DNA of 64,000 nucleotides from an uncultured Planctomycetota bacterium. GTDB lineage: Bacteria; Planctomycetota; Planctomycetia; Gemmatales; Gemmataceae. The stretch spans positions 288,001 to 352,000 of the forward strand of contig CAWKHF010000005.1 of NCBI GenBank assembly GCA_963849325.1, read 5' to 3'. A program made the position numbers and the translations under genes. This document shows, piece after piece, positions 8,065-58,400 of this stretch. The notes below the pieces were generated by a model. The model had not been told where the DNA came from. It did not search any database and saw only the letters and a list, made by a program, of their open reading frames with translations. Every line of letters begins with the position of its first letter. The stretch's first letter is position 1.

Positions 8065-8205
8065 GCCCTTCCGCCTTTCTGAAATCGCGTTCCTCGGTTG
8101 ATTGCCACGGGAGGTTCGCACCCGTCTTTATCGACATTATACGGAGGCGGCGTCAAGTGGCACAACGCGGACACTCCGGCCGAAGCGCGGACACGGGGAA
8201 GATGG

Positions 8206-30367: not shown

Positions 30368-30481
30368 GACGCCCTCCACTGCGTTGGGGTTTGGAGATCG
30401 GGATGCGCCGCCATCCCGCAAAAGACGGTTACAGGACGTGTTATGAAATTCAACCCCTTTCGGCGAGCGGAGCAACTCTCC

Positions 30482-35435: not shown

Positions 35436-36071
35436 ATGGCTCCGTCTCCCCTCGCCGCCGTCGTCAAGGTCGGCGGCAGTCTGTTCGAGCTGCCCGATCT
35501 GGCGACGCGCTTGCGCGACTGGCTCGCGGCGGAGGGGAACAGCGGGACCGGCGTGCTCCTCATCCCCGGCGGCGGCCGCACGGCCGACGTCGTGCGCGAA
35601 CTCGATCGCCGTCACGGACTCGGCGAGGAGTCGTCGCACTGGCTCGCCCTTCGCGCCCTGTCGCTCAACGCTCATTTCCTGGCCGCGCTGCTGCCGTCGG
35701 CGTGCGTGGTCGAGGACGCGAGCGCTTGCAAGCAAGCCTGGAATAAAGGCATTATACCGATCCTCGAAGGTTATGAATTCGCGCGCGGCGATGAGGGCCG
35801 TGCCGGCTGTCTGCCGCACTGCTGGGCCGTCACCAGCGACGCCCTGGCCGCTCGCGTCGCCCTGGTCGTCCGTGCTCGTTCTCTCGTCCTGCTCAAGTCC
35901 ACGTCGATCCCGGCCGGTGTGGATTGGAGGGAGGCGGGACGGAGAGGGTTGGTCGATGACGTGTTCGCCGAGGTTCTGCGGCAGGCGCCGGCGGACTTGC
36001 GCGTACGCGCCGTCAACCTGCGGACGTGGGGAGCCCGAACCAGCGAGTTGTTCTCCGAGCCTGAAGCGTAA
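35436..36071 (+). CDS. Amino-acid-kinase family protein (MfnE-like)
   Basis: VVKVGGSL, IPGGGRTADVVR, HWLAL, LPHCWAVTSDALAA, LLKS; adjacent to the MfnF-like gene. Confidence 0.85.
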   Translation: MAPSPLAAVVKVGGSLFELPDLATRLRDWLAAEGNSGTGVLLIPGGGRTADVVRELDRRHGLGEESSHWLALRALSLNAHFLAALLPSACVVEDASACKQAWNKGIIPILEGYEFARGDEGRAGCLPHCWAVTSDALAARVALVVRARSLVLLKSTSIPAGVDWREAGRRGLVDDVFAEVLRQAPADLRVRAVNLRTWGARTSELFSEPEA

Positions 36072-36108
36072 GCGAAGAGCATCTCTTCGCTTACGCTTCA
36101 GGCTCGGA
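36054..36108. repeat. REP-like palindrome, family 2 (contains stop of upstream gene)
   Basis: TCCGAGCCTGAAGCGTAAGCGAAGAG-CAT-CTCTTCGCTTACGCTTCAGGCTCGGA. Confidence 0.9.
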
Positions 36109-36135
36109 CAGATGAGATGGCCGCTGGTGCTGGCC

Positions 36136-39129
36136 CTAGGAGCCTGGATGTCGGGCGTGCGGTGGCGTGGGCGTCGGCGTCGGTGTGGGCGTCGGTGTCG
36201 GGGTTGGAGTAGGTGTCGGCGTTGGCGTTGGTATCGGTGTGGGAGTGGGCGTCGGTGTTGGAGTGGGAGTGGGCGTCGGCGAGCCGGGATGTCTGGCGTG
36301 CGGCGGCGGCGTGGGCGTAGGAGTGGGCGTCGGTGTCGGAGTCGGAGTGGGCGTCGGTGTCGGAGTAGGAGTTGGTGTCGGAGTCGGTGTGGGCGTCGGA
36401 GTCGGAGTGGGCGTTGGGGTCGGTGTCGGAGTGGGCGTCGGTGTTGGGGTTGGCGTCGGCGTGCTCGTGGCTCCGGAGATGTTGGGGTCGGTGGCGCTGC
36501 CGCCGACTCCCGCCATCCCGTCCGAGCCGAGGATCCCTTCGCTGGCCGCTTGCCCATCGCTGCCGGCTTTTCCGGCACCGCCCACATTGCCGTTCGGCTC
36601 TCCGGGTCCCGCCGGTCCTCCCGCGCCCGCTTGGCCGCCGTGTCCCCCCGGTGCGGGAGTACCCAGGGCGGCGACGGCGCCTCCCTTGCCTCCCTGGCTG
36701 GCGGAGACCGTATTGTTGGCTACCGTGGTGCTGGACAGGCCGGCGACAAGGCCATTGGCGAGATAGAGTCCGCCGCCCTGGGCGGCTCCGCCAGTGCCGC
36801 CGTCGCCGCCGTTGCCATGAACCCCGGCTTGGCCGCCATCGCCGCCGTTGCCGCCCGAGCCGCCCTGGCCGCCGTTGCCGCCCGTTCTCAAATGGTAGCT
36901 GGTATTGCCGGCGCCGCCGCCGCCTCCTGTACCGCCTTTGCCGCCGTGGGCGCCGGCGCCTCCCATGCCGTCGACATAAGCGTTGCCATAAAGATCGGAA
37001 GTGCCGGCGTGCCCTCCCGCGCCGCCGTTGCCGCCCGTTGCCGAATTCTGTTCGACGCTGGAAGCGGTCAGATGGAGAGAGCCTCCACTCTGATACAGAC
37101 CGCCGCCCTGAGCGAGACCGCCACTGCCGCCGTTGGCGGCGTTTTCGCCATTGCCGCCATTGCCGCCGTTGCCGCCGTTGCCGCCGTCACCACCGTTGCC
37201 GCCGTCGCCGCCGATGCCGCTCTGACCCGAGTGCTCGAAGCCAGCTCCTCCCTGTCCTCCACCGACGCCGGCGCCGCCGTAGGCTCCGTAGCTCGAACCC
37301 GCGGCCGGTCCTCCACCGCCCGTGCCGCCGTAGCCCGCAAACCCGCCGTTCCTTCCGATTCCTCCATAGACGGCATTGAACGAGATTGTCGATTGCTGAA
37401 TGGTGACCGTGCTGGAAACGAGGTAAGCCCCTCCGCCTTCGGCCGTGCCTCCATTGCCTCCATCTTCCGGTTTGCCGCCCTCGCCGCCATCCCCGCCGTC
37501 TCCGCCATTTCCCGCTTTACCAGCCTTGCCGCCAATGCCACCATCACTCCCCACCCCGCCAGGGCCGCCAGGGCCGCCATGGCCGCCAGGACCACCTGCG
37601 GCCCCGAAACCTCCCGCTCCTCCTCCTCCTCCGAAACCTCCTCCGCCTGCCGCGGCGACATTTCCCGCCGTACCGCCGAGGGTGGACGATTGCAGCAGCA
37701 GGTTTGCGTTGCTGACGAACAATCCTCCTCCCTGAGCGGAACCGCCGTCGCCGGCCTTGCCGCCATCTCCGGCGTTGCCGCCGTCGCCGCCGTCGCCGCC
37801 CTGGCCGCCGCTGCCGCCGTCGCCGCCCTTCTTCCCCGGACTGAAATAGAGGGCGGGTTCTCCGATGTGGGTCGCACCATGTCCTCCTCCGCCGCCATTG
37901 CCGCCGGCGCCGCCCTGGCCCCCAAAATTGCCGCCTCCTCCACCCGCGCCGGCGCCGCCGCCGCCGCCGTAGCCCGAGGAGGCGCTGTTCCCTTCGATCG
38001 TCGAATTGTTCTGGATGGTGAGGGTGCCCTGACTGAGGTAGATGCCTCCGCCCTGGGCGTCGCCGCCATCGCCGCCATCGCCGCCATCGCCGCCATCGCC
38101 GCCGTCGCCGCCTTTGCCGCCCTCCTCTCCCGGCCGGCCATTCGATCCGGATACCCCTGTCTGGCCAGCTTGGCCGTCCTCACCAGGGGCGTTGTCGCCG
38201 CCTCGTCCGCCTCGGCCGCCATACATGCCACCGCCGCCGTAGCCGCCCTCACCGCCCTCGGCTTCGTTGTCCGAGATGGTACTTTGGATGAGGGTGAGGC
38301 TGCCGTTCTGGACATAAATGCCTCCGCCGGCGGCATCGCCGCCCTTGCCGGCATCGCCGCCCTTGCCGCCCTTGCCGCCGTCTCCTCCCTCCGTCCCCTT
38401 GCCGCCGTAGGTGAAATTGCGGTTCGTGGTATGCTCCACCGCTCCGCCGCCGCTGCCGCCCGCGCCGCCCGCGCCGCCCCAGCCGCCTTTGCCGCCATAA
38501 GCCTGGTTGTTCGACACCGTGCTTCCCTGGAGAACGAGCGTTCCGCCGCTGAGGAAGATGCCGCCGCCCTGACCGTCGCCTCCGGATAAACCATTCAAAC
38601 CGTTCTGCCCACTGCCGCCGGCGGCGCCGGCGACGGTTGCCGCTTGGCCGTTGGCTCCATTCCCTCCGTTGGCTCCGGCCGATCCCTGGGCAAAGCCCTG
38701 GGAAATGATCACATCGTCCAGCGTGACGTTGGCGCCCGCGCCGACATCGAGAATGCGAAACTTCGGCGTTCCCGCCGTGGTGCCGCGCTCGATGGTGGCG
38801 CCGTGGCCCTGGATGGTCAGGTTGGACGAGGTGATGACCGGCAGACCGTTGGCGCCGTCGGTGGTATTGTTCACCGTCGTCAGCTGGTAGGTGCCGTTGG
38901 TGGCCAGGACGATGGTGTCGGCCTGACCGTCTCCGTTGGCCGTTTGGATGGCGCTCGCCAGCCCGGCGACATCGCCGTTGCCGAGGGTGAACGTCGTCGG
39001 CGTCGTGCGGTCCTCGAGCGTTTCGAGCATGGGCCGAATGGAGCGACGCCGTTTCGCCGACCCGGCGCGGGTGTAGGGAGAAATGCCGTGCTTACCGAAC
39101 CATCGCTGCCGCAATTGCGTGAGCCACAT
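36136..39129 (-). CDS. Exoprotein A: planctomycete leader, Gly-rich beta-helix-like body, (PT)n-HARHPGS tail x2
   Basis: Intact ORF from [12 protein letters not shown]...[25 protein letters not shown] rungs alternate with GGxGGx tracts. Confidence 0.88.
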
Positions 39130-39154
39130 CGTTGGGATACTCCGCGGGTAAGGA

Positions 39155-39310
39155 GGCGTGCCGGCCGCCTGCGGGATGGTATTGCCGGCGTCGATGTTTG
39201 CCGTAATCCGTCCGCTGAATCGACGTTGAAGACGACGGGAGCGAGGCGATTTCCCAGTCGTTCCAAGCCGGATCGCGCAATTTCTTCCGGGATGGCAGGG
39301 GCCACCCTGT
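39155..39310 (-). pseudogene. Decayed 5' fragment of an exoprotein-E paralog
   Basis: Translates to [28 protein letters not shown] and [11 protein letters not shown], matching E's [29 protein letters not shown] and [14 protein letters not shown] aligns to 50965-51145. Confidence 0.8.
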
Positions 39311-39343
39311 TGGGTAGGAGAATTCATGGCGACTTAGCGGGCC

Positions 39344-39372
39344 AGCCTAAAATGTCTAATTCGCCCTGTCAA
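39344..39372 (-). promoter_or_regulatory. Sigma70-like promoter upstream of exoprotein A
   Basis: TTGACA-N17-TAGGCT; homologous to the promoter at 51176-51204. Confidence 0.65.
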
Positions 39373-39440
39373 GCAACCTGAAGAAGAATTAATTTTGGCG
39401 GGATGTCTCGTCCTGGACTCGCTGGCGCAAGACCGTCTCT

Positions 39441-39498
39441 CGGAGCCTGAAGCATAAGCGAAGGAATGTGCTGTCCTTCGCTTACGCTTCAGGCTCCG
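39441..39498. repeat. REP-like palindrome, family 2 (diverged)
   Basis: CGGAGCCTGAAGCATAAGCGAAGGA...TCCTTCGCTTACGCTTCAGGCTCCG. Confidence 0.85.
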
Positions 39499-39519
39499 TA
39501 AGTGGATCCCTGATTGGAA

Positions 39520-42500
39520 CTAGCCGCCTGGATGTCGGGCATGAGGCGGCGTGGGCGGCGGTGTTGGAGTCGGCGTGGGCGTCGGTGTTGGCGTGGGCGT
39601 TGGAGTCGGGGTTGGTGTCGGCGTGGGAGTGGGCGTCGGTGTCGGAGTGGGCGTGGGCGTGGGCGTCGGTGTCGGCGTGGGCGTCGGCGAGCCGGGATGT
39701 CGGGCGTGCGGCGGAGTCGGCGTGGGCGTCGGCGTAGGCGTTGGAGTGGGCGTGGGCGTCGGAGTGGGTATTGGTGTAGGTGTCGGGGTTGGAGTAGGCG
39801 TCGGTGTCGGCGTGGGCGTCGGCGTTGGAGTCGGTGTCGGCGTCGGCGTGGGTGTTGGAGTCGGTGTGGGCGTTGGTGTCGGCGTGGGCGTCGAGGTCGT
39901 GGCCCCGTAGATGTCGGGGGACGTGCCGCTCCCGTGTACGCCCGGCGTCCCGGCCGAGCTGGTGGAGCCTTCGCTGGCTTGCTGCCCATCGCTGCCCGTT
40001 TTTCCTGGACCGCCCGGGCTGCCGTTGTAGACACCGCCCCCTGCCGGTCCTCCGGCGCCCGGCTGGCCTCCATGCGCCGCCGCGAGGAGGAGGAGCCAGG
40101 GCGGAGACGATGCCGCCCGAGCCGCCCTTGCTGTCGGAGACGGTATTGTTGGCCACCGTGGTATTGGAGAGGCCGGCAACCAGTCCGTCGGCGAGATAGA
40201 GACCGCCGCCCTGGGCGGCACCGCCGGTACCTCCATCACCGCCCTTGCCCTGAGCACCACCCTGGCCGCCGTCGCCGCCGTTGCCGCCCGAACCAGCCTG
40301 GCCGCCGTTGCCGCCCGTCCTGCCGTAGCCGCCTCGTCCACCGTTGCCGCCGCTGCCGCCCAGGCGCCGGCCCCTCCGCCTCCGCCAAAAACGTAGGCAT
40401 TCCCTCCATCGGTGGCGTTCCCTCCCGGGCCGCCGTTGCCGCCCTGGGCCGAATTTTGCTCGACGGTGGAAGCGGTCAAGTTGAGGGAACCCCCACTCTG
40501 GTATAACCCGCCGCCCAGGGCCACTCCGCCACTGCCTCCCATGCCGGCATTTTGCCCACTACCGCCCTTGCCGCCGTTGCCTCCATTGCCGCCGTCCCGC
40601 AGGCGGCCACGCCCCCTTGCCCGCCTCGATAGCTGCCCGCATATCCGCCATTGCCTCCCCCTCCACCGACGCCTCCAATGGCTCCCAGAGGCGCCGTCCG
40701 AGGAGGCCTGGGCCTGACCGCCCCTGCCTCCATAGCCGGCGGCCCCACCGCCCCCACCCGCCCCGCTATTGGCCTCATTGAACGAGAGGATCGATTGTTC
40801 AATGGTGACGGTGCTGGAAACCAGATAAGCTCCTCCGCCTTCGGCGTCGCCTCCATTGCCGCCATCTTCCGGCTTGCCTCCATCGCCTCCATCTCCACCA
40901 TCCCCGCCATCTCCGCCTTTGCCCCCTTTGCCCCCGAAGCCGCCAATCGTCCCCGCTCCCCCATTGCCGCCTGTTCGCCCTGCTCCGCCTGCACCGCCCT
41001 GGCTACCCGAATCCACCGACACCCCCTCCGCCCGCATATCCGCCTCTGCCTCCCTGGGCCATGTTTCCTTCGTAGGCGGTATCCGCCAATGCGTGGAAGA
41101 CTCCAGAAGAAAGCGATCCGTTGGTGACGAATAAGCCGCCTCCCTGAGCGGCGCCCGCATCGCCGGCCTTTCCGCCATCTCCTGCCTTTCCTCCCGCGCC
41201 GCCCTCTCCACCATTGCCGCCACTGCCGCCATCGCCGCCCTTCTTTCCCGGACTGACCCACCAGTAAGGCGGGATTCCCAGCATTCGGGTTGGTTGCGCC
41301 ATTTCCTCCTCCCCCTCCATCACCCCCAGCCCCGCCATTGCCGCCCGGGCCGCCGAAGTCGCCGCCTGCACCACCTCCACCGCCGCCGCCATAGCCGGAG
41401 TAGGCGGTATTCCCTTCGATAGTCGAATGGTCCTGGATGAGGAGTGTGCCCTGATGGAGGTAGATGCCTCCCCCTGTGCGTCGCCGCCGTCGGCACCGTT
41501 GCCGCCATCTCCGCCATCCCCGGCGTCGCCGCCCTTGCCTCCTTCTTCACCGGGCCGACCATTCGCTCCGGATACTCCGGTCGCACCATTCATGCCGCTT
41601 TCGCCGCGAGCGCCATCGCCCCCTCGTCCTCCCACGCCGCCAATGCCCCCTGGGCCGCCATAGCCGCCGTCTCCGCCCTCCGCTTGGTTGCCGTTGATCG
41701 TGCTTTGGATAAGGGTGAGGCTTCCGTTTTGAACATAGATGCCACCGCCGGCCGCGTCGCCGCCCTTGCCGGCATCGCCTCCCCGGCCTCCGTTGCCGCC
41801 GGCTCCTCCCTCGGTCCCATTACCGCCGTAGAAGCCGAAGTTGCTGGTATGATAAGCAGCCCCGCCTCCCCTGCCGCCGTTGCCTCCGGCTCCGCCGCCG
41901 CCGCCGATGCCGCCGAGGGCCATATTGAATTCCAGCGTCGCTCCCTGGAGAACGAGCGTTCCGCCGCTGAGGAAAATGCCACCGCCCTGACCATCGCCGC
42001 CGTCCGACCCGTTCTTGCCGTCGCTGCCGTTTCCGCCAGCACCGCCGGGAGCGGTCGCTGCCTGACCGTCGGCGCCGATGGCTCCGTTGGCTCCCGCCGA
42101 TCCTTTGGCTAGACCGTGGGAGATGATTACGTCCTCCAGCGTGACGTTGGCGCCGGCGCCGACATCGAGGATGCGAAACGCCGGCGTCCCCGCCGTGGTG
42201 CCGCGCTCGAGGGTGGCGCCGTTGCCCTGGATGGTCAGGTTGGACGACGTGATGACCGGCAGACCGTTGGCGCCGTCGGTGGTATTGTTCACCGTCGTCA
42301 GCTGGTAGGTGCCGTTGGTGGCCAGGACGATAGTGTCGGCCTGGCCGTCTCCGTTGGCCGTTTGGATGGCGCTGGCCAGCCCGGCGACATCGCCGTTGCC
42401 GAGGGTGAACGTCGTCGGCGTCGTGCGGTCCTCAAGCGCTTCGAGCATGGGACGAACGGAGCGACGCCGTTTGGCTGCCCCGATGCGGGTGTGCGGAGAA

Positions 42501-42550
42501 ACGCTGTGCTTGCCAAACCATCGCTGTCGCAATTGCGTGAGCCACATCAT
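39520..42550 (-). CDS. Exoprotein B, paralog of A (several frameshifts in assembly)
   Basis: [13 protein letters not shown]...[10 protein letters not shown] start; Gly-rich frames join end to end; ends (PT)n-HARHPGS-(PT)n-HARHPGG. Confidence 0.82.
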
Positions 42551-42595
42551 TGGGAACTCCCGGACAACGGTATGATCGATGCTCGTTCTCTCCTC

Positions 42596-42638
42596 ATCCC
42601 AATCCCTCTCCCCCGAAACGGGAGAGAGGAATTGGGGA
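42596..42638. repeat. Palindrome (CCCTCTCCC...GGGAGAG type)
   Basis: CCCAATCCCTCTCCCCCGAAACGGGAGAGAGGAATTGGG hairpin in the B leader. Confidence 0.6.
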
Positions 42639-42818
42639 ACAGACCCTCCCTGTGAAGAAGTACGAGCCGGTAAGCCTGATTCTTACGGCAAAAAAGACAG
42701 CCTGCAACATTTTTTTTGGATTTTCCGAACTGCGAGCGCGGGCGTGCGAGAAGCGGCCCGCGAGCGGATGTGCTCGCGGGCCGGCTGGCGACATTCGCCG
42801 AGCGAAGAGGACGTCCCT

Positions 42819-45799
<2,981 letters not shown>

Positions 45800-45854
45800 G
45801 GGAGGACTCCGGGTCGAAGGGTTAGATCCGTTCACCTATCGCAACGGATTCTCG

Positions 45855-45922
45855 CCCTGAGCGGGGGCGTCAACCCCCTGAGAATGGCGGCACTCAGGGG
45901 GCTGACGCCCCCCCGCTCAGGG
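45855..45922. repeat. REP-like palindrome, family 3 variant
   Basis: CCCTGAGCGGGGGCGTCAACCCCCTGAG...CTCAGGGGGCTGACGCCCCCCCGCTCAGGG. Confidence 0.85.
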
Positions 45923-46007
45923 TGCGAAACCACGGCTAACCCAAAGTACGAAGCGAAAGAATGGAACCTGTCGCGCGACGGGAATTTTTTTCCGAACTGC
46001 GTCGCGG

Positions 46008-48173
46008 CTAAACGAGGGCCGCGAACAAGGCGCCCAGGTGGGGTTCGTAATTCCGCCAGCGTCCGGCCGAGCGCGTGTACAGCGGTTGACGTACCTGCAT
46101 GACGCTGGCGGTGCGCACCGGCTGCTTGCCCTCGTGGAAAGCCAGGCAGGCCGGCTCCCACTCCAGGCCGCACCACGCCACCAACCGCCGCGCCACGCTC
46201 TCCAGGTCGGCCACCGTCTCCTCGTAATCGATCTCCAGCAGCGAAACCGGCAACACCGTCCGCCAATGCGCCATCAAGCGCTGATATTCTCGGAAGCGCG
46301 CGGCGATGTGCTTGGGATCGTTGGCCCAGCGAATGCTGCGGAAGTTGGTCATCCAGCACGACACGGCCACGTCGCGCAGGTCGCGGCGGCAGTGGATGAA
46401 CTTCGCTCGGGGAAACAGCAAGGACAGCAGGCCAAGGTACAGATAGTTGTCTGGCATCTTGTCCACGACGCGCGCGGCGGTGGGATTCAGGCTGCGCAGT
46501 TGGCCCAAATGCTTCTGCGCCAGGCGGCGGGCCGCGTCGCGCTGGAGTCCCGGCAGCGCCTCGAAGGCGCTTGCTTCCGTTGCGTCCGCTCCCAGGGCCA
46601 GGAAATCCTCGCGGGCCTGGCGCAGCTCGCCGGCGCCGAAGACCTGCGAATGACCGGCGAGAATTTGCTCGGTCAACGTCGTGCCCGAGCGCGGCAAACC
46701 GACGATGAACACCGGCCGCTCCGTCTCCAGGCCGAAGCCGCGCACGCGCTCGAAGAACGCTGGCGTGAAGACGGTCATCATGTTGTCGATAAAACGAGTA
46801 AATTCATCGGGATCGTAGCTCTGTTTATTCTCGACGCGCAGCGCCAGCTCCAGGGCGTTGGCCTGTTGCAGATGGGCGGCGGCCTGTTCGTAGTTGCCGT
46901 CGGCGTCGCACACCTGGGCCAGGCCGAAGAGCAGACCGGCGCGGCCGGCGTCGTTCAGCTCCGGCTCGGCCAGGCGCTGCTCGATGACCGTGCGGTCGGC
47001 GGCCGGCAGCTTGCCGCGCAGCAGCGTCGCCAACTGCGACAGGGCGGCGGCGTGGCGCGGATAGTCGCGCAGCACCTCTCGATACGCCTGCTCCGAAGCC
47101 GCGAAGTCGCCCAGTTCCTGAAGCACCAGGCCGAGGTTGCAGCGCGCGGCCGGGAAGTCCGGCTGCAAACGCAGTGCGGTCTGATAGCGCTCCAGCGCCT
47201 CGGTGAAATAGCCTTGTTCGTGCCGGACCCAGCCGAGGCGATTGTGCGCCGCCGCGTAATCGGCATCGAGCCGCAAGGCCAGCTCGTAGCGAACGAGGGC
47301 TTCTTCGTAGTTCTCTTGCTCCTCGAAGACGCTGGCCAGGTAGCAGTGCAGGCGCGGCGAGTTCGGCTCCAGTTGCAGCGCCTGTTCGTACCACGAGACG
47401 GCCTCCGACAGTTTGCCTTCCTCTTGCAAGGCCTGGCCCATGTTGCCGTAGGCCAGGGCCAGGTCGGGATTGAGGTGCATGGCCTCGGCGTAGCAGGCGC
47501 GGGCCTCGGCCAACTGACCGCGCTCGCGCAGCACGTTGCCGAGGTTGTTGTGCGCCTCGGCGGTGTTCGGCCGCAGGCGAACGGCTTCACGGCAATGGTG
47601 CAGGGCGTCGTCCAGCTCTTGTTGTTCCAGCAGGATTTGTCCGAGATTGCTGTGAGCGGCCGCGAAGTTGGGATCGCACTGCACGGCCTGGCGAAAGTGC
47701 GCGATGGCCTGTTGGCGATCGCCGAGAAGACGGTAGGTGTCGCCCAGGTTGTTATGGGCCTCGGCGAAGTTGGGCTTGAGGCGCAGGGCGGCCTGAAACT
47801 GAGCGATGGCGGCCTCGCCCTTGTCCTGGTCGCGCAGGGCCAGGCCGAGATTGATGTGGGCTTCGGCGAGGCTGGGTTGCAACCGTAGGGCGGTGCGGCC
47901 GCAGCCGACGGCTCGGTCCAACTCGCCCAGGGCGCGGTACGCCTCGGCCAGGTTACTGTGAAAGGCGGCGGCGCCGGGCTTGTGGGCGATGGCCTGGCCG
48001 ATCAACTCCACGGCCGCCGCATGGTCGCCCTGCTGATGACGCAGCACGCCCAGCAAGTGCAGGGCATCGGCGTTCCGCGGTTCCTGGGCCAACAGTTTCT
48101 GATAGAGCTGAGCGGCCTCTCTCAGCTGTCCCGATTGATGCTTTTCGATGGCGGCCGTCAACGTGTCTTGCAT
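46008..48173 (-). CDS. TPR-repeat PAPS-dependent sulfotransferase
   Basis: About 11-12 TPRs (AEAHNNLG-type) followed by 5'-PSB FIVGLPRSGTTL, DKMP, 3'-PB RRDLRDVAVSCW and VRTASVMQVRQPLY. Confidence 0.95.
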   Translation of the reverse strand: MQDTLTAAIEKHQSGQLREAAQLYQKLLAQEPRNADALHLLGVLRHQQGDHAAAVELIGQAIAHKPGAAAFHSNLAEAYRALGELDRAVGCGRTALRLQPSLAEAHINLGLALRDQDKGEAAIAQFQAALRLKPNFAEAHNNLGDTYRLLGDRQQAIAHFRQAVQCDPNFAAAHSNLGQILLEQQELDDALHHCREAVRLRPNTAEAHNNLGNVLRERGQLAEARACYAEAMHLNPDLALAYGNMGQALQEEGKLSEAVSWYEQALQLEPNSPRLHCYLASVFEEQENYEEALVRYELALRLDADYAAAHNRLGWVRHEQGYFTEALERYQTALRLQPDFPAARCNLGLVLQELGDFAASEQAYREVLRDYPRHAAALSQLATLLRGKLPAADRTVIEQRLAEPELNDAGRAGLLFGLAQVCDADGNYEQAAAHLQQANALELALRVENKQSYDPDEFTRFIDNMMTVFTPAFFERVRGFGLETERPVFIVGLPRSGTTLTEQILAGHSQVFGAGELRQAREDFLALGADATEASAFEALPGLQRDAARRLAQKHLGQLRSLNPTAARVVDKMPDNYLYLGLLSLLFPRAKFIHCRRDLRDVAVSCWMTNFRSIRWANDPKHIAARFREYQRLMAHWRTVLPVSLLEIDYEETVADLESVARRLVAWCGLEWEPACLAFHEGKQPVRTASVMQVRQPLYTRSAGRWRNYEPHLGALFAALV

Positions 48174-48222
48174 GGGCGAAAAATCCTTTCCGTTGCGTCG
48201 TCGAGCCAAGAGGGAAGACCGT

Positions 48223-51132
48223 CTAGGAGCCTGGATGTCTGGCGTGCGGCGGCGTCGGTGTCGGGTTCGGTGTAGGCGTCGGGTTCGGTGTGGGCGTCGG
48301 GTTTGGTGTGGGCGTCGGGTTTGGCGAGCCGGGATGTCGGTTGTGCGGCGGCGTCGGCGTGGGATTTGGAGTCGGCGTCGGCGTTGGTGTCGGCGTTGGT
48401 GTCGGCGTCGGCGTCGGCGTTGGTGTCGGCGTCGGCGTCGGCGTGACGTTGACAGTGAAGGCGCCAGGGTGCCGGTGGCGGTCGCGTTGCCGGCCAGGTC
48501 GGTCGGCGGATTGGAGACGAGGTTGATCGTGTAGGTGCCGGTCGGCGCATTGTCCCAGGAGCCGCCGGGCGGCGTGATCTGATAGGTGACGGTGATGGTT
48601 TGGGCGTCGCCCTGTCCGTCCTGCGCTCCCGACAGCACGGTGTTGATCGCCGTGGCGGTGATGGGTGAACCGCTGGGCGGCTGCACCTGGACGACAGCGC
48701 CGCTGATGCTGCCGCCGTTGACCATCACGGGATCGGAATAAGCGACCGTGAAGGTATATGGATTTAAGGTATCCTCGTTGGCGTTGGTGACGTTGGCGGC
48801 GTTGAGGTTGGCCGTGGGCGGCGTGGTGTCCGAGCCAACGGCCCCGAAGACCGTGTCGCCGGCGCTGGTGCCGTCCGACGCCGGGCCGGCCCTCAAGCCC
48901 GAACTGCCCAAAGCGCCGTCGTTGCCCTCCGCGCCGTCTTTGCCGTCGGCACCTTCGGGATCGCCGGGGCCGCCCTGGCCTGCTAATCCTCCGTTGCCGG
49001 CGTCGCCGCCCGCGCCGCCCGCGCCAGCGCGCCGACACTGCCTGCCTTGCCCCCTTGTGCGGTGCCGCTCAAGGTAGTGCCGTTCAGAGAGGCGGAAAAT
49101 CCGTTGGCGACGTAGATGTCTCCACCTTGACCGTCGCCGCCGTTGCCAGCGTGGCCGGCGTTGCCGCCGTTACCGCCCGGCCCCCCGGAGCCGCCGTCGC
49201 CCCCGTTGCCGCCATGCCCGCCAGCGGCGATGTGGGCGCCGTTGGGTCCGTAGACACCGCCGCCGCCGCCGTAGCCGCCGAGGTTGCCACCGCCACCCTT
49301 GCCACCCTCGCCGCCTGGACCGGCCGCGCCGCCGTTGCCGCCGTTGGAGCCGAGCGCGGAATCCTTGGCGAAATCACCGCGGACGATAGTGAGGCTGCCA
49401 CCGGCCTGGTAAATGCCGCCGCCCAGGCCATCGCCGCCTTTGCCGCCATCGCCGGGGTCGCCGCCGTCGCCGCCCTTACCGCCTTGTGCTCCGTTGCCGG
49501 CGTCGCCGCCCGCGCCGGCGTCGCCACCCTTGCCGGCCGAGTTGACGTAGCCGTCACCACCGTTGCCGCCGATTCCGCCGTAGCCGCCAGCGCCACCTTG
49601 GCCGCCCGCGCCACCTTGGCCGCCCGCGCCACCTTGGCCGCCAGCGCCGCCCGTGATTCCCTGACCGCCCATTGCGGTGTTGGAAGTGAACGTCGTGGCG
49701 ATAAGGGTAGCCGTGCCGTCCTCCAGGTAAAATCCGCCGCCCTTGGCGTCGCCGCCGTCGCCACCGTCGCCACCCTTGCCGCCATCGCCGCCGTCGCCGC
49801 CGTCGCCGCCCTCACCCCCGTTGCCGGCGTCGCCGCCCACACCCGCGGCGATGCCGGGGATGCCGATGGCGCCGCCGCCGGGGCCGCCGTTGCCGGCGTT
49901 GAAAGCACCGCCTCCATCGCCGCCGTCGCCGCCATCATCGCCACTAATGCCCGCCCCACCGTCACCAGCCGTCGCCGCGTTGCTCGTGACGGCGGTGGAC
50001 ACAACCGTCAACTTTCCGGAGGCCAAGTACAGTCCTCCGCCCTCCGCGTCTCCGCCGTTGCCGCCCTTGCCGCCATCGCCGCCGCCCACGGCATCGCCGC
50101 CTTTGCCGCCCGCGCCGCCCATTCCTCCTTTGCCACCCGCGCCGCCTTTGTAGCCTGCGGGGCTGGACGCAATTCCTAAGGTTCCGCCACCCGCGCCGCC
50201 GGCGCCGCCCGAGCCGCCCGCGCCCCCCGCGAATCCGCGGTCCTGGGACACCAACACACCGGAGGCGCTCGAGAGGTGGTGGCCGGGTCCGCCGCCGTCG
50301 CCACCCGCGCCCCCCGGGCCGCGTTGTTCAGGACGGTCGTGTTGATAAGGGTCAATTGCCCGGACGCTACATAGATGCCGCCGCCTTTGGCGTCGCCGCC
50401 ATCGCCGCCATCGCCGCCAGCACCGTTCTTCAGCGAAGCCGCCTGGGGACCGTCCTGGCCGTCCCCGCCATCGCCGCCATCCCCTCCCTCTCCTCCGGGA
50501 GCCGTGGCATCTTTGCCTACGGCTCCCTTCTGTCCCGTCAGGTGCGCGCTCGGGGTGGGAGCATAATGGGTAAGTTGATTGCCCCCCGCCCCTCCTGCCC
50601 CCCCTTTACCGCCGCTAACGCTGTTGCCACGGACGGTGACGTTGGTCAGGGTCAGACTTCCCGAAGCCAGGTAAATGCCGCCGCCCTCGGCCTCGCCGCC
50701 CTTACCGCCGGCGCCGCCGTTTTGACCGCTCACCCCCGCCGCGCCGGCCGACCCCGTGGCTCCCACCACGTTGCCGCCCGTGATGGTTAGGTTCTGAATC
50801 CGTACCGTCAGATTGCTGTTGCCGATGATCTCGAAGATGCGATTGGTCGCCTTCGATCCGCCGGTGAGGATGGTGGTGTTCTCGGCCGCGCCGACGAGGC
50901 TGAGCGTGCGGGCCGTGTCGGGCTGGTCCTGAATCAACAGTTCCACGCCGGCGCTGAGCGTATAAGTGCCGGCCGCGAGGTTGATGGTATTGCTGGCGTC
51001 GCTGTTGCCGTCGGCCGCCTGGATGGCGGACTGCAAACCGCTCGCCGAGTTGACGTCGAAGATCGCGGGAGCGAGACGATCTTCCAGTTGTTCCAGACGC
51101 AGGAAGACGCGCGATTTCTCCCGAGATGACAT
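48223..51132 (-). CDS. Exoprotein E: LEQLEDR leader, Gly-rich beta-helix-like body, Ig-like domain, (PT)n-H(N/A)RHPGS tail x2 (frameshifts in assembly)
   Basis: [22 protein letters not shown] start; GGGIYL rungs; DTTPPTA...TDLAGN Ig-like domain; stop lies 49 nt upstream of the sulfotransferase start. Confidence 0.82.
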
Positions 51133-51175
51133 GCGGCCACCGCATTGTGGGTGAGAATGGGATATTTAGCGGATC

Positions 51176-51204
51176 ACTGTAAAACTCATAATTCGGTCTG
51201 TCAA
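51176..51204 (-). promoter_or_regulatory. Sigma70-like promoter of the exoprotein E-sulfotransferase unit
   Basis: TTGACA-N17-TACAGT with an AT-rich upstream element. Confidence 0.7.
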
Positions 51205-51250
51205 GTACCTAACGAATTATTAATTTTTTGTGGGAGGCACTACCCAAATA

Positions 51251-51316
51251 GGCGAGCGGGGGGCGTAAGCCCCCTATTGACGGCGACAAACAGAGGGCTT
51301 ACGCCCCCCGCTCGCC
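51251..51316. repeat. REP-like palindrome, family 3
   Basis: GGCGAGCGGGGGGCGTAAGCCC...GGGCTTACGCCCCCCGCTCGCC. Confidence 0.9.
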
Positions 51317-51445
51317 AAAAAGTTACCGCTTCTGAAGAGCAGATTGGATGCCAAAACAAGAGCCTCACACAAATTCGCAAAGAACGCCAGGAATTGAAAA
51401 AAAAGACGGGATGAAAGGATCGTAGGATCGTGTCACCGTAAAACC

Positions 51446-51493
51446 AATCTCCCGTTTGGCATCGGCTGGGCGAGCCGGCACCAAACGGGAGAT
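51446..51493 (-). terminator. Hairpin downstream of exoprotein F
   Basis: ATCTCCCGTTTGG...CCAAACGGGAGAT stem about 20 nt after the F stop. Confidence 0.5.
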
Positions 51494-51514
51494 GTGGGGG
51501 GACACCACTTATGG

Positions 51515-54500
51515 TTACAGGGCCGCTATAAACGACTGATAGGCGTGCAACTCGGTGGCGAAGAACTGGAAGTTGGCACTCAACATACTATTGGCGGCGA
51601 AAAGGGCGTCCGCCATCGCCTGATTGGCCTGGTTCTGTTCCAACTGCACCAGTTGCGTCAGTAGGCTGCCGACAGACTGGAGGAGATCCTGCTGTACGGC
51701 CACATTCAGAGACTGATAATCTTGCAGCGCGTCCATGACGGCGACGAGATTGCCAGTCAACAAGCCTTGCGTCAACGAGACGAGGGTCTGAAACTCCTGC
51801 TGAATCAGTTGCGGGAGGGTCGGTGTCGGGGTCGGAGTGGGCGTTGGTGTCGGCGTCGGCGTCGGCGTTGGCGTCGGCGTCGGGGTGGGCGTGGGGACAG
51901 GCGTGGGACTGATGATGATGTTGGCGGTGACCAGACTGTCGCTGGGTCCGCCGGGGGTCGGCAGGGTCAGAACGGCGTTGGTGCCGGCGGCGTTTTTGAT
52001 CGTGGCGCCGTTGAGGGCCAGCGGCACCAACGGAGTGTAGTCCAGCGCCTGGCCGAACGAGGTGTCGCCGGGCTTGACCGTGTAGGTGAAGATCAAGGTG
52101 TTGCTGCCGCTGCCGCTGCTGTAGTTGGCCATCTGGCCATTGGCCAAGGCCAGCGTCGGTGTGCCCGCGCCTGCGACAAAGACCTTCTCGCTGAAGGTCA
52201 CGTCGATGACGATCGTGTCCCCTGGCCCGTAGGTGCCCGAGGCGGTGGTCGTGCCCACGCCGGTCACGGCCGGCGTGGTGGCGTCGATGATGATGCCGGT
52301 GGTCTTGAGCGTATCGCTGGCCGCGCCGGGGGCCGGCAGCGACGCGAGGTTGGCCGCCATGCCGCCAGCGTTCGCGATCATGCCGCTCAGCCCGCCGGCG
52401 GTGTAGTCGAGGTTGGCGCCGTTGGTGGTGTCGCCAGCCTGCGTCGTGTAGGTGAAGACCAGCGTATTGGTGCCGGTGCCACTGAGGTAGCTGGCCGTCT
52501 TGCCGTCGCTGAGCGTCAAGGTCGGCACGCCGGTGACATTGACGTTCTCGCTGAAGGCCACGTCGATGGTGACCGTCGCCCAGTCCCGAGTGCCGGCGGC
52601 GGTGGTCGTGCTCACGCCCATCACCGTTGGCGTGGTGGCGTCGATGATGATACCCTTCGGTTCCAAACGTATCGCTGCCCGAACCGGGCATCGGCAGCGT
52701 CAGAGTAGCCGCCGTGCCGGCCGCGCTCTTGATCGTGCCGCCGCTCAGCGAATTGATCGCCGCATAGTCGATATTGGCGCCGGAGGTGGTGTCGCCGGAC
52801 GGCACCGCGTAGGTGAAGGTCAGCGTGTTGGTACCGCTGCCGCTGCTGTAGTTGGCCGTGCCGCCGTCGCTCAGCGCCAGCGTCGGCGTGCCGGTGACGG
52901 TGACGTTCTCGCTGAACGTGACCGTGATGGCGATCGGCGCCCCCGTTCCGAGGGTGCCGGCGGCGGTGGTCGTGCTCACGCCCGTCACCGTCGGCGTGGT
53001 GGCGTCGATGATGATGTTGTCGTCCTGGCTCAGCGAATTCGCCGCGCCGGCGCACGGCAGCGTCAGAGTGGCTGCCACGCCGCCCACATTCTTGATCGTG
53101 CCGTTCAGCGCCGTGGCCGACGCCTCATCGAGATTGGCGCCGTTGGTGGTGTCGCCATTGGCCACCGTGTAGTTGAACACCAGCGTGTTCGTGCCAGTGC
53201 CGCTGACGTAGGTGGCCGTTTTGCCGTTGCTCAGGGTCAGGGTCGGCGTCCCGGTGACATTGACCGCCTCGCTGAAGACCACATCGACGGCGATCGTGGA
53301 CCCGCCCGCATAGGCGCCGTCGACGGTAGTCGAGTTGACCTTGGTCACCGTCGGCGTGGTGGCGTCGATGATGATGCCGGTGGTCTTGAGCGTATCGCTG
53401 GCCGCGCCGGGGGTCGGCAGCGACGCGAGGTTGGCCGCCACGCCGCCGGCGTTCGCGATGGTGCCGCCACTGAGACTCAGCCCGCCCGCGCTGTAGTCGA
53501 GGGCGGCGCCGCTGGTGGTGTCGCCGCCGGCAACCGTGTAGGTGAAGGTCAGGGTCTGGCCGCCGCTGCCGCTGGTGTAGCTGGCCCTGCTGCCGTCGCT
53601 GAGCGTCAAGGTCGGCGTGCCGGTGACATTGACGTTCTCGCTGAAGGTGACGGTGATGGCAACCGGCTGAGTGGGACCGTAAGTGCCGGCGGCGGTGGTC
53701 GTGCTCACACCCGTCACCGTCGGCGTGGTGGCGTCGATGACGATGCCCGTGGTGCCAAACGTATCGCTGCCCGAACCGGGCGTCGGCAGGCTCGCCAAGG
53801 TCGAGGGCATTGTCCGCCGAGTCGAAGATCGAGCCGCCGTTGAGGCTCAGCCCGCCCGCGCGGTAATCGAGGTTGGCGCCGTTAGTGGTGTCGCCGCTGC
53901 CCACCGTGTAGGTGAAGACCAGCGTGCTCGTGCCGCTGCCACTGGAATAGTTGGCCTTTTGGCCGTCGCTCAACGTCAGATAGGGTGTGCCGCCGGTGGT
54001 ATCGACCGTGACCGGCTTGCTGAGGTTCAGGTCGATCGTAACCTGGCCGGTCCCGAGGGCGCCGGCGGAGTTGGTCGTGGAAACCGTCGTGATGGTCGGG
54101 CGACGCCGTCGATCGTGATGTTGTCCGTGTAGAGAATATCGTTGGCCGAGGCCGGTCCCGGTAAGGACGACGCCGGCAGGGTGAGGTTGGCCGCCAAACC
54201 GTCCGAGACATCGTTGATGGTGCCGCTGTTGAGGACGAGCGCGCCGGTGCCCGTGTAGTCGAGCGGGCTTTGCTCCTTTATTCCCCGAAATGGCAATGTG
54301 GTGAAGCCAGGCAGCTTCCCAATTTTGCTATCTTGCCAGTTTCAGGAATAAAGGAGCAAAGCCAGTCGAGCGGAGTGGCGGTGTCGCCGGCGGGCACGAC
54401 GAGGTTGAATTGCAGAGCACTGGTGCCGCTGCCGCCGACGTAGGCGGCCTTCTGAGTCAGGCTATCGTTGAGGGCCAGCTGAAGGTCGCATTGCCTCCCG

Positions 54501-55044
54501 CCGTCACCGTCTGGTTGCTCGGTTGCGTCGTGATGGCCGGTACGTTGCCGTCAACCGTGATGTTGTCGGCGGCGAGATAGTCAAAATTGGCCGTGGCGGG
54601 AGTCTGTAAGGTGAGGGTGGCCGCGGCCGCGTCGGAACGATCGTTGATGCTGCCCCCGGATAAGCTGAGCGCGGTGGTGTCGAGGTAATCGAGCGGACTG
54701 GCGCTATCCGGAGTGGGGACGATAAACGTGAATTGCAGCGAGCTGGTGCCGCTGCCTCCGCTGTACTGGGCCAGCGTGGTTGCGCTATGGTTCAGCGCCA
54801 GAGTCGGCGTGCCGGTGACGGTGACCGCCTGGCTGAAGTCCACGTTGATGGTGGCCGTCTGCCCAGCGTTGAGGGTGCTGTTGGGGGTCAGCGTCGTGGT
54901 CACGTCCGTCACGGTGGCGTTGAGCAGCGTGCGGTCCTCTAGGACTTCGACGTAGAGCATGCCGCGTCGGGGATCTCTCACGACGCGCGTCCGTCGAGCC
55001 TTCGAGACCTGTTTTAACCACGTCCATATCGGCGACCGAAACAT
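51515..55044 (-). pseudogene. Exoprotein F: VEVLEDR leader, about 8 tandem ~120-aa Ig-like repeats, (PT)n linker, helical C-domain; disrupted
   Basis: Repeats DATTPTVT...FSENV.VTGTPTLTLSDG...SGSGT.TL.FTYTV..GDT...LDY. Interrupted by a MITE at 54266-54363 and an apparent deletion junction near 54480, plus additional indels. Confidence 0.78.
54266..54363. mobile_element. 98-bp MITE with 19-bp terminal inverted repeats and a 9-bp target-site duplication
   Basis: TIRs GGCTTTGCTCCTTTATTCC / GGAATAAAGGAGCAAAGCC; AGTCGAGCG duplicated at 54257-54265 and 54364-54372; excision restores ...GDTATPLDYTGTG. Confidence 0.93.
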
Positions 55045-55242
55045 GCGGGAGCACTCCATAGTCAAAGGGAATGAATGTTGGCGGGGACGCACATCGTTGT
55101 GTTGTCGCCGGTACGAGGGCGGCGGGTGGGAGAGAAAGGTATCGCAGGGGCGAACCGACCTCGCCGACCCATGCCCTCCGCCGGCCGTGCAAGGCGGGAA
55201 GGTTGCGGGACAGTCCGAACCGGCCACGCGGTTAAGGTGCTG

Positions 55243-55271
55243 AATCTTGCGCCGAAGCCGGCACTTGTCAA
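55243..55271 (-). promoter_or_regulatory. Putative sigma70 promoter of exoprotein F
   Basis: TTGACA-N17-AAGATT. Confidence 0.5.
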
Positions 55272-55398
55272 GCGGCCTCGGCGAACGAGAAGATAAATGG
55301 GCAAGTGACGGTGCCGAAAAGGACGGCGGTGCGGCCAGCAACGGCTTCACGAAGGGATTCCGGGATGTGCCCTACGGAGATTCGCGCAGCGAAAGATA

Positions 55399-55455
55399 CC
55401 GAGCCGCGACCGTTAGAGAGCGGGGGAGCACCACTCCCTAACGGTCGCGGCTCGG
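55399..55455. repeat. REP-like palindrome
   Basis: CCGAGCCGCGACCGTTAG...CTAACGGTCGCGGCTCGG, just downstream of exoprotein G. Confidence 0.88.
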
Positions 55456-55479
55456 ACAGCGGCTTGCGCTACGCGGGAC

Positions 55480-58400
55480 TCAGGAGGAGCCAGGATGTCT
55501 GGCGTGCGGCGTCGTCGTCGGTGTCGGCGTCGGAGTGGGCGTGGGTGTCGGCGTCGGAGTAGGGGTCGGTGTCGGCGTTGGGGTTGGGGTAGGCGTGGGT
55601 GTCGGCGTCGGAGTAGGGGTCGGTGTCGGCGTCGGGGTGCCGGGATGATTGCTCTGCAGGTGAAGGGTGGTCGTGGCCTGGGCGGCGCTCGGCGTCGGCT
55701 GTTGCAGGCCGAGCGGATCGAGGGCCACGCTGTAGAAGCGATAGGTGTGGCCATTCTGACCGGAGTAGGTCGCGGACGTGGCGGTGGTGTTCATCAGCCA
55801 GGGCGTGAAGGCGCCGCCGTCGTCGGAGACGTAGATGGTGTACGAGGCGATGCCGGGACCGTTGGCATCGCTGCCCGACCAGCTGACGCCGAACTTCGAC
55901 GAGTTCTCCGTGGACGGCAGCGGATTGACGTTGCTCGTCGGCGGACTGACGTCGAGGGTGTTGACGACGGTCTGGGTCGCCAGCGCCGCGTTGGTGTCGA
56001 AGACGACCGACGCTTGGCCGCTGATGGCAACGCCGCCGGCCAGGCCGGGCTTGGGCTGCACGGTGTACTGCACGTAGCCCTCGCCGACGCCGCTGCTGTT
56101 GTCCGGCGGCAGGAAACCGTCGAAGACGCCGGTCGGCGCCTGGCCGGTCAGCGGATCGAGCGAGGTGAAGGTGACGCTCAACAGGCCCGTCTGCACGTTG
56201 AAATTGAGACTGACTTGCACGTTCAGCGACGTGCCGTCCGTGTTCTGGTAGCTGACGGTGGTCTGGTACTGCGTCAGTCCGGCGGGGATGGCGACGTTGA
56301 CCGAGCCGAAGCCGAACGAGCCGAGCTGGAACGTGGACCAGTTCAGGTTCGGATCGAGCTGCTGGGTGACGGTGACGACCTGGGCGGCGGCGCTGCCGTC
56401 GTTCTCGAAGTCGATGGTGTAGGGCAGAGTGCCGGCCGGCAGCAGGAAGCCTTGCGCTCCGTAGCCGGCGGGGCCGATGAGGGCGTTGGGATCGTGGGAG
56501 GTTTCGTTGTCGGAGTCTCCGCTCGTACTCGGTTCGCTCGGCCACAACGGTAGGTTCCCGAGAACGCTAGCGTTGAAGCCGGGCACTTTGAAACCAACGC
56601 CGGCACTGACACTGGTGGAGGAGTCGCTACCGAAAAAGGATTTGTGGGCTGTGATGCCAAAGATGGACCATCCTATGGTCCCACTAAAATCGGTTGACAC
56701 ACCAGCGGAAGTGTCGTCGGATGAAATGGAGTAGATCGTAAAGCCTGGCGTGGTTGCGCAAGTCCCAACGTCAGGAAAACGCCTCCATTGTTGTTGACCG
56801 TGAATCCAATCGTGCCGCCGATGATCGCGCCCCCGGAAAATCCGAAGAATTGCGATACTAACCCTGTCGGATCGATAAGGCCGATTGGGTTGTTTCCGAC
56901 GTATCGCCGGATATTCGTGTCACCTCCCGCCAGACCCGTCGGATCATTGCTCAAGAACTGCCCCGTGGCAGGTGTGTAGTCTCGCGCCCGCATGTAGAAC
57001 AGATTCAAGCCAATCTGCATCACACTGAATTGCCCGGCGAACGTAAACGAGTTCGGTAACGCCGCCGAAAGCGTTGTCGTCTCGCCGAATGGCAGGTAGG
57101 TGTACTGGTTGACGTAGGCACCGTTGGCGCCGGTGATGCCGACGGTGTTGCCGCTGGCGTCGAAGTCGTAGTAGCCGGTGCCGCTGGGTCCGCTCTGGCT
57201 GACCAGGCCGAGTCCGTAGGTGTAGTTGGCGATCAGCCCACCGCTGCCGTTGTAAGCGCCACGACGTTGCCCAGGCCGGTCGGATCGACCAGGTAGTTCG
57301 TCTGGCTGGTGGTGTCTCCGCTCGTCGTGGACGTGCTCACCAGGAAACCGAGCGGGCTGTACTGGAAGGTCGTCGTGCTGCCGTCCGGCGACGCGATCGA
57401 TACCAGCTGGTTGAGGTCGTTGTAGGTGTACGTGGTGGTGCCGCCGGCATCGGTGGCGGTGTGCAGATTGCCGTTGGCGTCGTAGGTGTAGGTGGTCGAG
57501 CCGGCTTGCGTGATCTCGTTGTCGGCGTTGCTGGCATAGCTGGTGGGCACGCCGTTGGTCAGTACCTCGGTACGGTCGCCAGCTGCATTGTAGACGTAGG
57601 TGATGCTCGTGCCGTCGGGCAGCGTCACCGAGGTCAGCTGGCCGATGGCATCGTAGCCGTACTTGGTGACGTTGCCGGCGGCGTCGGTCACCGAGGTCTG
57701 CTCGTCCAGCGTGTTATAGGTGTAGGCGAACGACGAGTTGACCGTGGTGCCGCTCGAATTGGCGTAGTTGATCTCGCTGGTCAGGTTGCCGGCGGCGTCG
57801 TAGGCGTAGGTCGTATAGGTGCCGTTACCGTTGGCCTTCTCAACCAATTGGCCGAGGTTGTTGTAAGTGTATTGGACGATGAGGTTGTCCGAGCCGTCGG
57901 TCAGCTTGGACAGCCGGCCCAGCGGATCGTAGGCGTAGTTGACGGTGTAGCCGCTCTGGTCCACGCTCTGGGTGCGCTGGCCCGCGGCGTTGTAGGTGAA
58001 GTTCAGGTACTGGCCGTTGGGATAGGTGATGGACAGCAGCTCGTTGGCGGCGTTGTAGGTCAGGGTGGTGGTGCCGGTGAGCGTGCCGCCGGCGTCATAG
58101 GTGTTCGCGGTCAGCAGGTTGCCGTGGGCGTCGTAGGTGTAGCTCTGCGACGAGCCGTCGGCGAAAGTGGACTGGGTGACGAGACCCTGGGCGTTGTACT
58201 GGTTGGCGACCGGGTCGCCGTTCTGCTCGATGGTCTCGCTGAGGTTGCCGAGCGGGTCGTAGGTGAACGACTGCTGCGTGCCGTCGGGATAGGCGATGCG
58301 GAGCAGGTTGCCGGCGGAGCTGTAGCTGTACTGCGTCCTGTTGCCGGCGGCGTCCGTCAGCGAGGTCAGCGTGCTCAGCGGGCCGTAGGTCATTTGCGTG

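Follow-up and report, generated by a model that had tools for sequence, protein, structure and literature searches.

The stretch analysed here, 64,000 nt of the genome of an uncultured planctomycete of the family Gemmataceae (assembly GCA_963849325.1, contig CAWKHF010000005.1, positions 288,001 to 352,000), is referred to below as the window, and all coordinates are window positions. It carries a run of minus-strand genes, in the order G, F, E, a gene for a TPR-repeat sulfotransferase, C, B and A (Table). The predicted products of A, B, C, E and G close with Pro-Thr (PT) repeats and the octapeptide P-H-[A/T/N]-R-H-P-G-[S/G]. This octapeptide is an ending that chance does not explain, and it is common to five genes, one of which, the RHS gene G, is architecturally unrelated to the others.

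Scanning all six frames of the window for RHPG gave 14 matches. Nine were the octapeptide within PT repeats on the minus strand, and the remaining five lay in unrelated contexts. At the DNA level, a degenerate pattern (CCNCAYNNNMGNCAYCCNGG) matched the window nine times with 0.02 matches expected, and none of 100 shuffled sequences got to nine. Five of the copies are terminal (A, B, C, E and G). All five were found where an earlier reading of the letters alone (the sequence-only reading) had placed them, behind a PT linker, with a stop codon after each. Its description of the motif as an extreme C-terminus holds for these five, but it missed four further copies, which are internal (A, B, C and E). 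The internal copies sit inside the PT linker, 33-55 residues upstream of the terminal copy, giving the layout (PT)n-PHxRHPGS-(PT)n-PHxRHPG[SG]-stop in A, B, C and E, while G has one copy only; the number of PT dipeptides per tail runs from ~20 (G) to ~50 (B). After the motif Gly, the termini carry S, G or SS, for protein ends of GS, GG or GSS, and the internal copies carry S and then P. The stop codon comes 0-1 residues after PHxRHPG[SG] in five different contexts. None of the nine copies has a hydrophobic helix or a basic cluster behind it, the internal ones leading into PT repeats, and no folded module lies distal to the PT linker in A, B, C, E and G, only the octapeptide or octapeptides. 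Gene F serves as an internal control, since its product has a PT linker without the motif; a PT linker thus does not imply the motif.

Table. Genes, motif copies, tails and hairpins of the locus (window positions)
Feature	Position	Strand	Description
Gene A	36136..39129	-	Sole unbroken member; LxLExLEDR leader, Gly-rich and probably beta-helical passenger, PT tail with two motif copies
Gene B	39520..42550	-	Paralogue of A, 83% identity in N-terminal domain; several frameshifts
Gene C	42819..45799	-	Paralogue of A, 80% identity in N-terminal domain; one frameshift near 44830
TPR-repeat + Sulfotransfer_3 protein, 721 aa	46008..48173	-	Domains from Pfam
Gene E	48223..51132	-	Distant family member, 39% identity to A in N-terminal domain; two frameshifts
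Gene F	51515..55044	-	LEDR leader, ~5 Ig-like repeats, PT linker, ~100-aa helical C-terminal module; no motif
Gene G	55480..63999	-	RHS protein; frameshifted; N-terminus past window end
Terminal motif A	36139-36159	-	HARHPGS (eight codons, PHARHPGS, 36139-36162), then TAG
Terminal motif B	39523-39543	-	HARHPGG (PHARHPGG, 39523-39546), then TAG
Terminal motif C	42822-42842	-	HTRHPGS (PHTRHPGS, 42822-42845), then TAA
Terminal motif E	48226-48246	-	HARHPGS (PHARHPGS, 48226-48249), then TAG
Terminal motif G	55483-55506	-	HARHPGSS (PHARHPGSS, 55483-55509), then TGA
Internal motif A	36280-36303	-	PHARHPGS
Internal motif B	39688-39711	-	PHARHPGS
Internal motif C	42987-43010	-	PHARHPGS
Internal motif E	48325-48348	-	PHNRHPGS
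Tail A	36136-36468	-	
Tail B	39520-39900	-	
Tail C	42819-43145	-	
Tail E	48223-48444	-	PNPTPT linker between internal and terminal motif
Tail G	55480-55638	-	PT run 55510-55638
Hairpin downstream of A	36040..36115	-	Perfect; arms ~23 nt
Hairpin downstream of B	~39440-39500	-	Near-identical to that of A

The synonymous variation among copies pointed out in the sequence-only reading (Pro CCA/CCC/CCT, Arg CGA/AGA, Ser TCC/TCG) is correct, and it is accompanied by rare codons that the copies have in common. The motif Arg is encoded by CGA in six copies and AGA in three, codons that make up 9% and 2%, respectively, of the Arg codons in nine gene segments of the window; in the same segments CAT has a usage of 30%, compared to nine of nine copies for the second His of the motif. 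The identity between copies of codons for the same residue was 0.72 in the motif, compared to 0.46 for independent draws at genome codon usage and 0.39 in the 12 upstream PT codons (random, 0.33-0.35). The nine copies represent eight haplotypes. Two haplotypes, CCC..TCG and CCA..TCC, distinguish internal from terminal copies in A, B and E, and in C they have changed places. In E, moreover, linker and motif form a 99-bp tandem unit present in 1.9 copies. Given the shared rare codons, the codon identity, the haplotypes and the tandem unit of E, the motif copies share DNA descent or gene conversion, and tandem duplication of the linker together with the motif gave rise to the double unit. The PT flank of the motif, in contrast, appears from its codons to be scrambled quickly by repeat slippage. 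Pairwise local alignment past the stop codon scored 38 for A-B (maximum of 14 in shuffles) and 18 for A-G (maximum of 15), and the other eight of ten pairs were in the null range, the similarity between genes ending at the stop codon in those eight. We also noted that the PT linkers of the five tails have a codon make-up of their own, with ACA, ACT and CCA enriched and ACC depleted relative to the rest of the window.

We then asked how the copies differ in their amino acids. Over all eight codons, the ratio of nonsynonymous to synonymous differences per site (pN/pS, Nei-Gojobori method, 36 copy pairs) was 0.19. The core codons P1, H2, R4, H5, P6 and G7 had no nonsynonymous differences over 476 sites despite a pS of 0.34, while positions 3 and 8 had a pN/pS of 0.95 and look neutral. 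We read the unchanged amino acids of the core, at this level of synonymous divergence, as purifying constraint on P-H-x-R-H-P-G. The core thus looks selected: its P, H, R, H, P and G stay the same, with drift at synonymous sites and at positions 3 and 8.

Both sets of results bear on the possibility that the octapeptide is functionless in itself. It would then be a chance interruption of a microsatellite-like PT repeat that was copied along with the tail by recent tandem duplication of genes and by PT-mediated gene conversion, with copies that are young or homogenised. The rare CGA/AGA and CAT codons common to all copies, a motif codon identity above that of independent draws and the recent divergence of the paralogues A, B and C (80-83% identity) are all consistent with such a history. 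It sits less well with a core that has no nonsynonymous differences while positions 3 and 8 vary freely, with the stop codon lying within 0-1 codons of the motif in five different contexts, and with the same motif in E (39% identical to A elsewhere) and in the unrelated G, where the PT codons next to it have been randomised and the DNA downstream bears no relation. We consider a neutral passenger rather unlikely.

How far the tails can be taken as parts of proteins depends on the quality of the assembly. Gene A stays open over 997-1063 codons, and both of its motifs are in frame, whereas B, C, E, F and G switch reading frame one or more times. The LE-x-LEDR leader that the sequence-only reading described for A, B, C and E is present in each, but leader and tail come together in one protein only with read-through of the frameshifts in B, C and E. 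In B, C and G, 130 or more residues of a recognisable domain precede the tail in the same frame; in E, a frameshift lies within ~10 codons of the PT run, and one correction is needed to join the tail. Frameshifts of this kind, together with the highly repetitive nature of PT-coding DNA, could be taken to mean that the tails are not in expressed proteins and that B, C, E and G are pseudogenes or mis-assembled repeats. Similar breaks, however, occur in genes elsewhere in the window. For glutamine synthetase (glnA, 28954-30475, minus strand), Gln-synt_C positions 2-52 and 78-344 fall in different open reading frames (ORFs) in two frames, and an M81 (MlrC-like) peptidase (8153-9667, minus strand) is spread over three frames. 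A 318-aa N-terminal piece of E, its out-of-frame end included, also matches the public protein-library entry P0122 letter for letter. The breaks are therefore not evidence of pseudogenes; they point to a public assembly rich in indels, and the frameshifts in glnA and the M81 peptidase indicate sequencing indels rather than gene decay in B, C, E and G. The frameshifts of the locus are most likely assembly indel errors, and such errors bear on any ORF-based reading of the window. Since the nine motif copies fall into eight haplotypes, they are also not one collapsed repeat. With A intact and the tails of B, C and G joined in frame to recognisable domains, an artefact of assembly or annotation is extremely unlikely.

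The products of A, B, C, E and F start with a basic stretch followed by the L-E-x-L-E-D-R leader, which places them among the LxLExLExRxxP surface proteins. PMC8567305 (citing Studholme 2004) describes this leader as an export signal that is specific to planctomycetes and carried by cell-surface proteins, and gives 52 genes of this kind for Tuwongella immobilis. A profile of the N-terminal domains (leader region plus first rungs) retrieved 7318 proteins at E <= 0.001, and the best homologue of A is 63% identical. No Pfam match was found for A, B, C and E, nor any NCBIfam family at E <= 1, the choice-of-anchor Q model included. Among the homologues, P0281 (38% identity, Gemmataceae bacterium) is the only one named choice-of-anchor Q protein, and two are named 'predicted outer membrane repeat protein'. 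The passengers of A, B, C and E share with the choice-of-anchor Q or polymorphic outer-membrane-protein-like beta-helices their GGGIY-x-LTL-x-N-x-A rungs, but differ in matching no NCBIfam or Pfam model and, for A, in having no Foldseek match at E <= 0.001. When residues 1-700 of A were modelled with AlphaFold2 from an alignment of 26 sequences (mean predicted local distance difference test score, pLDDT, of 64), the model had stacked beta rungs at pLDDT >=90, with Gly-rich loops of low confidence between them. The best Foldseek matches of this model were all right-handed beta-helix proteins, though weak, none being at E <= 0.001; the predicted beta-helix of the A passenger is for this reason probable at most. 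Gene E combines the leader with Gly-rich repeats, an Ig-like domain and the tail. In F, 5.2 tandem copies (71% matches) of a 360-bp unit at 52077-53978 (minus strand) code for Ig-like domains.

Protein G has a different architecture, comprising, in order, a CARDB/PPC region, YD/RHS repeats, an RHS-associated core, a Gly-rich stretch, DUF7619, an FN3-like domain, the PT run and the motif. It is an RHS protein (Pfam RHS_repeat, E = 2.9e-86; YD_repeat_2x; TIGR03696, 71.2 bits with a cut-off of 32.5), and the core ends in LIDPTGL (56850-56879), the DPxGL motif. In the region after the core, where a toxin domain would be expected (55480-56879, minus strand), no toxin family was matched; the Gly-rich stretch, DUF7619 and the FN3-like domain are found there instead. 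The C-terminal part of G has >200 homologues, some annotated as RHS-associated, and is common in planctomycete-type proteins.

Comparison with relatives indicates how the tail came to be where it is. Of 192 A-family homologues, 26 end in ...N-I-x-G-x-Y-xxx, at the point where A, B and C run on into the tail, and G-family homologues have various other modules after the FN3-like domain. Since relatives of A stop where the tail of A, B and C begins, the tail is an add-on, appended at the place where A relatives end and G relatives carry other modules. Two such modules, an 'FGIPLLV..FD' module and a helical 'DIQANP' module, each terminate homologues from the A family as well as from the G family (P0190, P0283, P0292, P0308, P0316 and P0319, and P0125 and P0315, from different sources), and dockerin-like repeats end four A-family members. 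Swapping of C-terminal modules is thus normal in both families. The PHxRHPG tail resembles the portable modules of LxLExLEDR-leader proteins in occupying the same end slot in the same two passenger families. It differs in that the portable modules are folded, 60-100 residues long and present in many genomes, whereas the PHxRHPG unit is eight residues long and was found here only. The 'FGIPLLV..FD' and 'DIQANP' modules are better candidates than the octapeptide for general anchoring or assembly. Within the locus F, too, has a C-terminal helical module, placed after its PT linker.

The tails also invite comparison with the (PT)n linkers, or PT boxes, of secreted bacterial glycoside hydrolases, which are reported to be glycosylated and to connect modules (PMC8209791, PMC3490864). 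The long alternating (PT)n runs in exported proteins are common to both, as in CenA of Cellulomonas fimi, and the top matches in a search with the tail of A were PT-linker cellulases, chitinases and enzymes bearing carbohydrate-binding modules. In A, B, C, E and G, however, the linker leads not to a folded module but to the octapeptide, once or twice, and then to a stop; F does have a distal module after its linker.

To find the motif elsewhere, one genome per species from 185,579 species was scanned with the pattern ACNCCNCCNCAYRMNMGNCAYCCNGG, which covers only T-P-P-H-[A/T/N/K/D/E]-[R, or S from AGY]-H-P-G, that is, seven of the nine local copies, and would miss flanking variants. This gave 96 single matches in scattered unrelated taxa, none of them in a PT repeat, and given this scatter and context we take them as chance matches. 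Searching longer proteins with the 61-aa tail of A gave 390 matches at E <= 10 among 8000 scored candidates. The best 120 of the 390 were all ordinary PT-linker proteins, with the motif in none, which is weak evidence of absence since the window's own proteins were not returned as a positive control and PT words probably crowded out other candidates. The motif was likewise found in none of 150 representatives of the A family among the matches listed, none of 59 closer A homologues and none of 120 homologues of the C-terminal part of G among the matches listed. Across all 432 homologues and PT-rich proteins fetched, neither the motif nor off-frame readings of it (TPDI.., ARQTS), as might be seen in frameshifted homologues, were detected, protein A itself being absent from the output of these searches. 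The motif matched no Pfam or NCBIfam model, four exact-string variants including HARHPG gave no papers in the searchable literature, and keyword searches gave no paper on such a motif. The sequence-only reading had not recognised the motif from any described family, which agrees with these results. It had also held that confinement to this locus without purifying selection would count against it. As far as searched, the motif is confined to one locus, while purifying selection does appear to act on its core. The motif looks like a local invention and not a general sorting signal. Its limitation to one 20-kb locus, as far as searched, also speaks for neutral copying.

A short signature at the C-termini of unrelated surface proteins (five genes, two architectures), preceded by a low-complexity spacer, recalls the tripartite signals of LPXTG/sortase, PEP-CTERM/exosortase, GlyGly-CTERM/rhombosortase and MYXO-CTERM/myxosortase. 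These are described as consisting of a signature, a hydrophobic helix and a basic tail, and as recurring in many proteins and genomes with a cognate enzyme (10.1101/2023.06.07.544157, PMC11980579, PMC3237569, PMC1569441). PHxRHPG differs in having no helix, no basic tail, internal copies and, as far as searched, a single locus; the sequence-only reading had rightly set it apart from LPXTG, PEP-CTERM and GlyGly-CTERM, with no helix or basic cluster after the motif. That reading nevertheless proposed a C-terminal tag of a dedicated exoprotein system, on which an enzyme of its own would cleave, anchor or modify the proteins as for the signals above. An ending common to five adjacent secreted-type proteins, one of unrelated architecture, a conserved core and a position in the slot where relatives have other portable modules all speak for such a tag. 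However, the motif is internal in four of its nine copies, what follows the Gly varies, and the motif occurs in no other genome scanned, unlike known signals. No candidate enzyme is evident, and a Pfam scan of window ORFs showed nothing like a sortase, exosortase or rhombosortase. The proposal does not survive these observations well, and we regard a sorting or processing tag as very unlikely.

The explanation that we tentatively prefer, at somewhat short of even chances, is that PHxRHPG is a locally arisen short linear motif that caps, and is embedded in, the PT stalk of cell-surface proteins, where it would probably act as a cationic or metal-binding foot. Within the locus the motif is portable, and it is probably functional. 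The PT-tail unit may have moved between unrelated genes by recombination in repetitive PT-coding DNA, with local spread of the motif by duplication and recombination in these repeats. On this explanation PHxRHPG is not a cleaved, membrane-inserted sorting signal; it would act wherever it is placed on the stalk and not through a free C-terminus. Each stalk would have one or two cationic His-Arg-His feet, which might attach without a covalent bond to a metal ion or to an anionic polymer of the envelope. The protein would thereby be tethered or cross-linked, and the PT stalk would keep its passenger domain at a distance from the cell.

Several points weigh against this explanation. The function of the foot is derived from composition (two His and one Arg between prolines) and position. 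The selection test covers 24 nt in nine non-independent copies, and gene conversion could mimic part of its signal; local neutral persistence after a recent spread could likewise have left the copies as they are. The motif was in no other genome or protein searched and so has no comparative support for a function, and the source locus, either absent or masked, was not among the matches of the genome scan, which thus had no positive control. In addition, the E tail is out of frame with its upstream domain as sequenced, and the assembly has many indel errors.

The gene for the TPR-sulfotransferase lies inside the cluster, its start 49 nt downstream of the E stop codon with no hairpin between, and is probably co-transcribed with E. 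This raises the possibility that the motif is a docking site that recruits a modifying enzyme to the PT stalk, be it this TPR-sulfotransferase or an O-glycosyltransferase or prolyl hydroxylase with PT or HPG residues as targets. The TPRs of the sulfotransferase resemble the peptide-binding TPRs of OGT (O-GlcNAc transferase), a bacterial protein sulfotransferase, RaxST, has been described (PMC4892823), and glycosylation of PT linkers is reported for the secreted enzymes mentioned above (PMC8209791, PMC3490864). On the other hand, the tail has no tyrosine, and the TPR-sulfotransferase has no signal peptide-like start although its substrates would be exported. TPR-sulfotransferases are widespread, and a motif found nowhere else searched is a poor fit to a dedicated pairing with one of them. 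The neighbourhood is the sole link between the two. A complex prediction that paired 680 aa of the TPR-sulfotransferase with 45 aa of the E tail scored 0.00, which speaks neither for nor against binding. A docking site appears decidedly unlikely.

A bolder reading would make P-H-x-R-H-P-G the recognition element of an undescribed, dedicated surface-display system without a transmembrane segment, restricted to a narrow Gemmataceae lineage. Such a system would attach or modify cell-surface proteins through the one or two motif copies on each PT stalk, and what reads the motif would be a receptor in the envelope, a cross-link that depends on metal or the TPR-sulfotransferase of the cluster. We consider this quite unlikely; if true, the motif would represent a new class of bacterial surface-display tag. 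Little is understood of how planctomycetes keep proteins on their surface. Should the octapeptide work as an attachment or ligand-binding unit, it would be among the smallest such modules and a case of a new surface-display element born in repetitive linker DNA and spread among neighbouring genes. Otherwise, the locus cautions that a striking C-terminal motif shared within one locus need not denote a sorting system. With the motif found in one locus only, its general importance is limited for now.

Finally, we noted hairpins downstream of several of the genes. Those of A and B are near-identical (Table) and may be a REP-like (repetitive extragenic palindromic) element or a terminator; C and G have hairpins of their own, unlike that of A, and E has none before the next gene. 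A scan for consensus terminators found 8 sites compared to 15.9 in shuffles and was not informative. A role of the motif at the DNA or RNA level was considered and rejected, since an 8-nt complementarity between the 3´ end of the motif and a hairpin arm was seen only for A and B and is within chance. Elsewhere in the window, a gene at 18760-20694 (plus strand) encodes a protein with sigma-70 region 4 and WD40 repeats, a fusion type that is described as a planctomycete innovation (PMC8567305).

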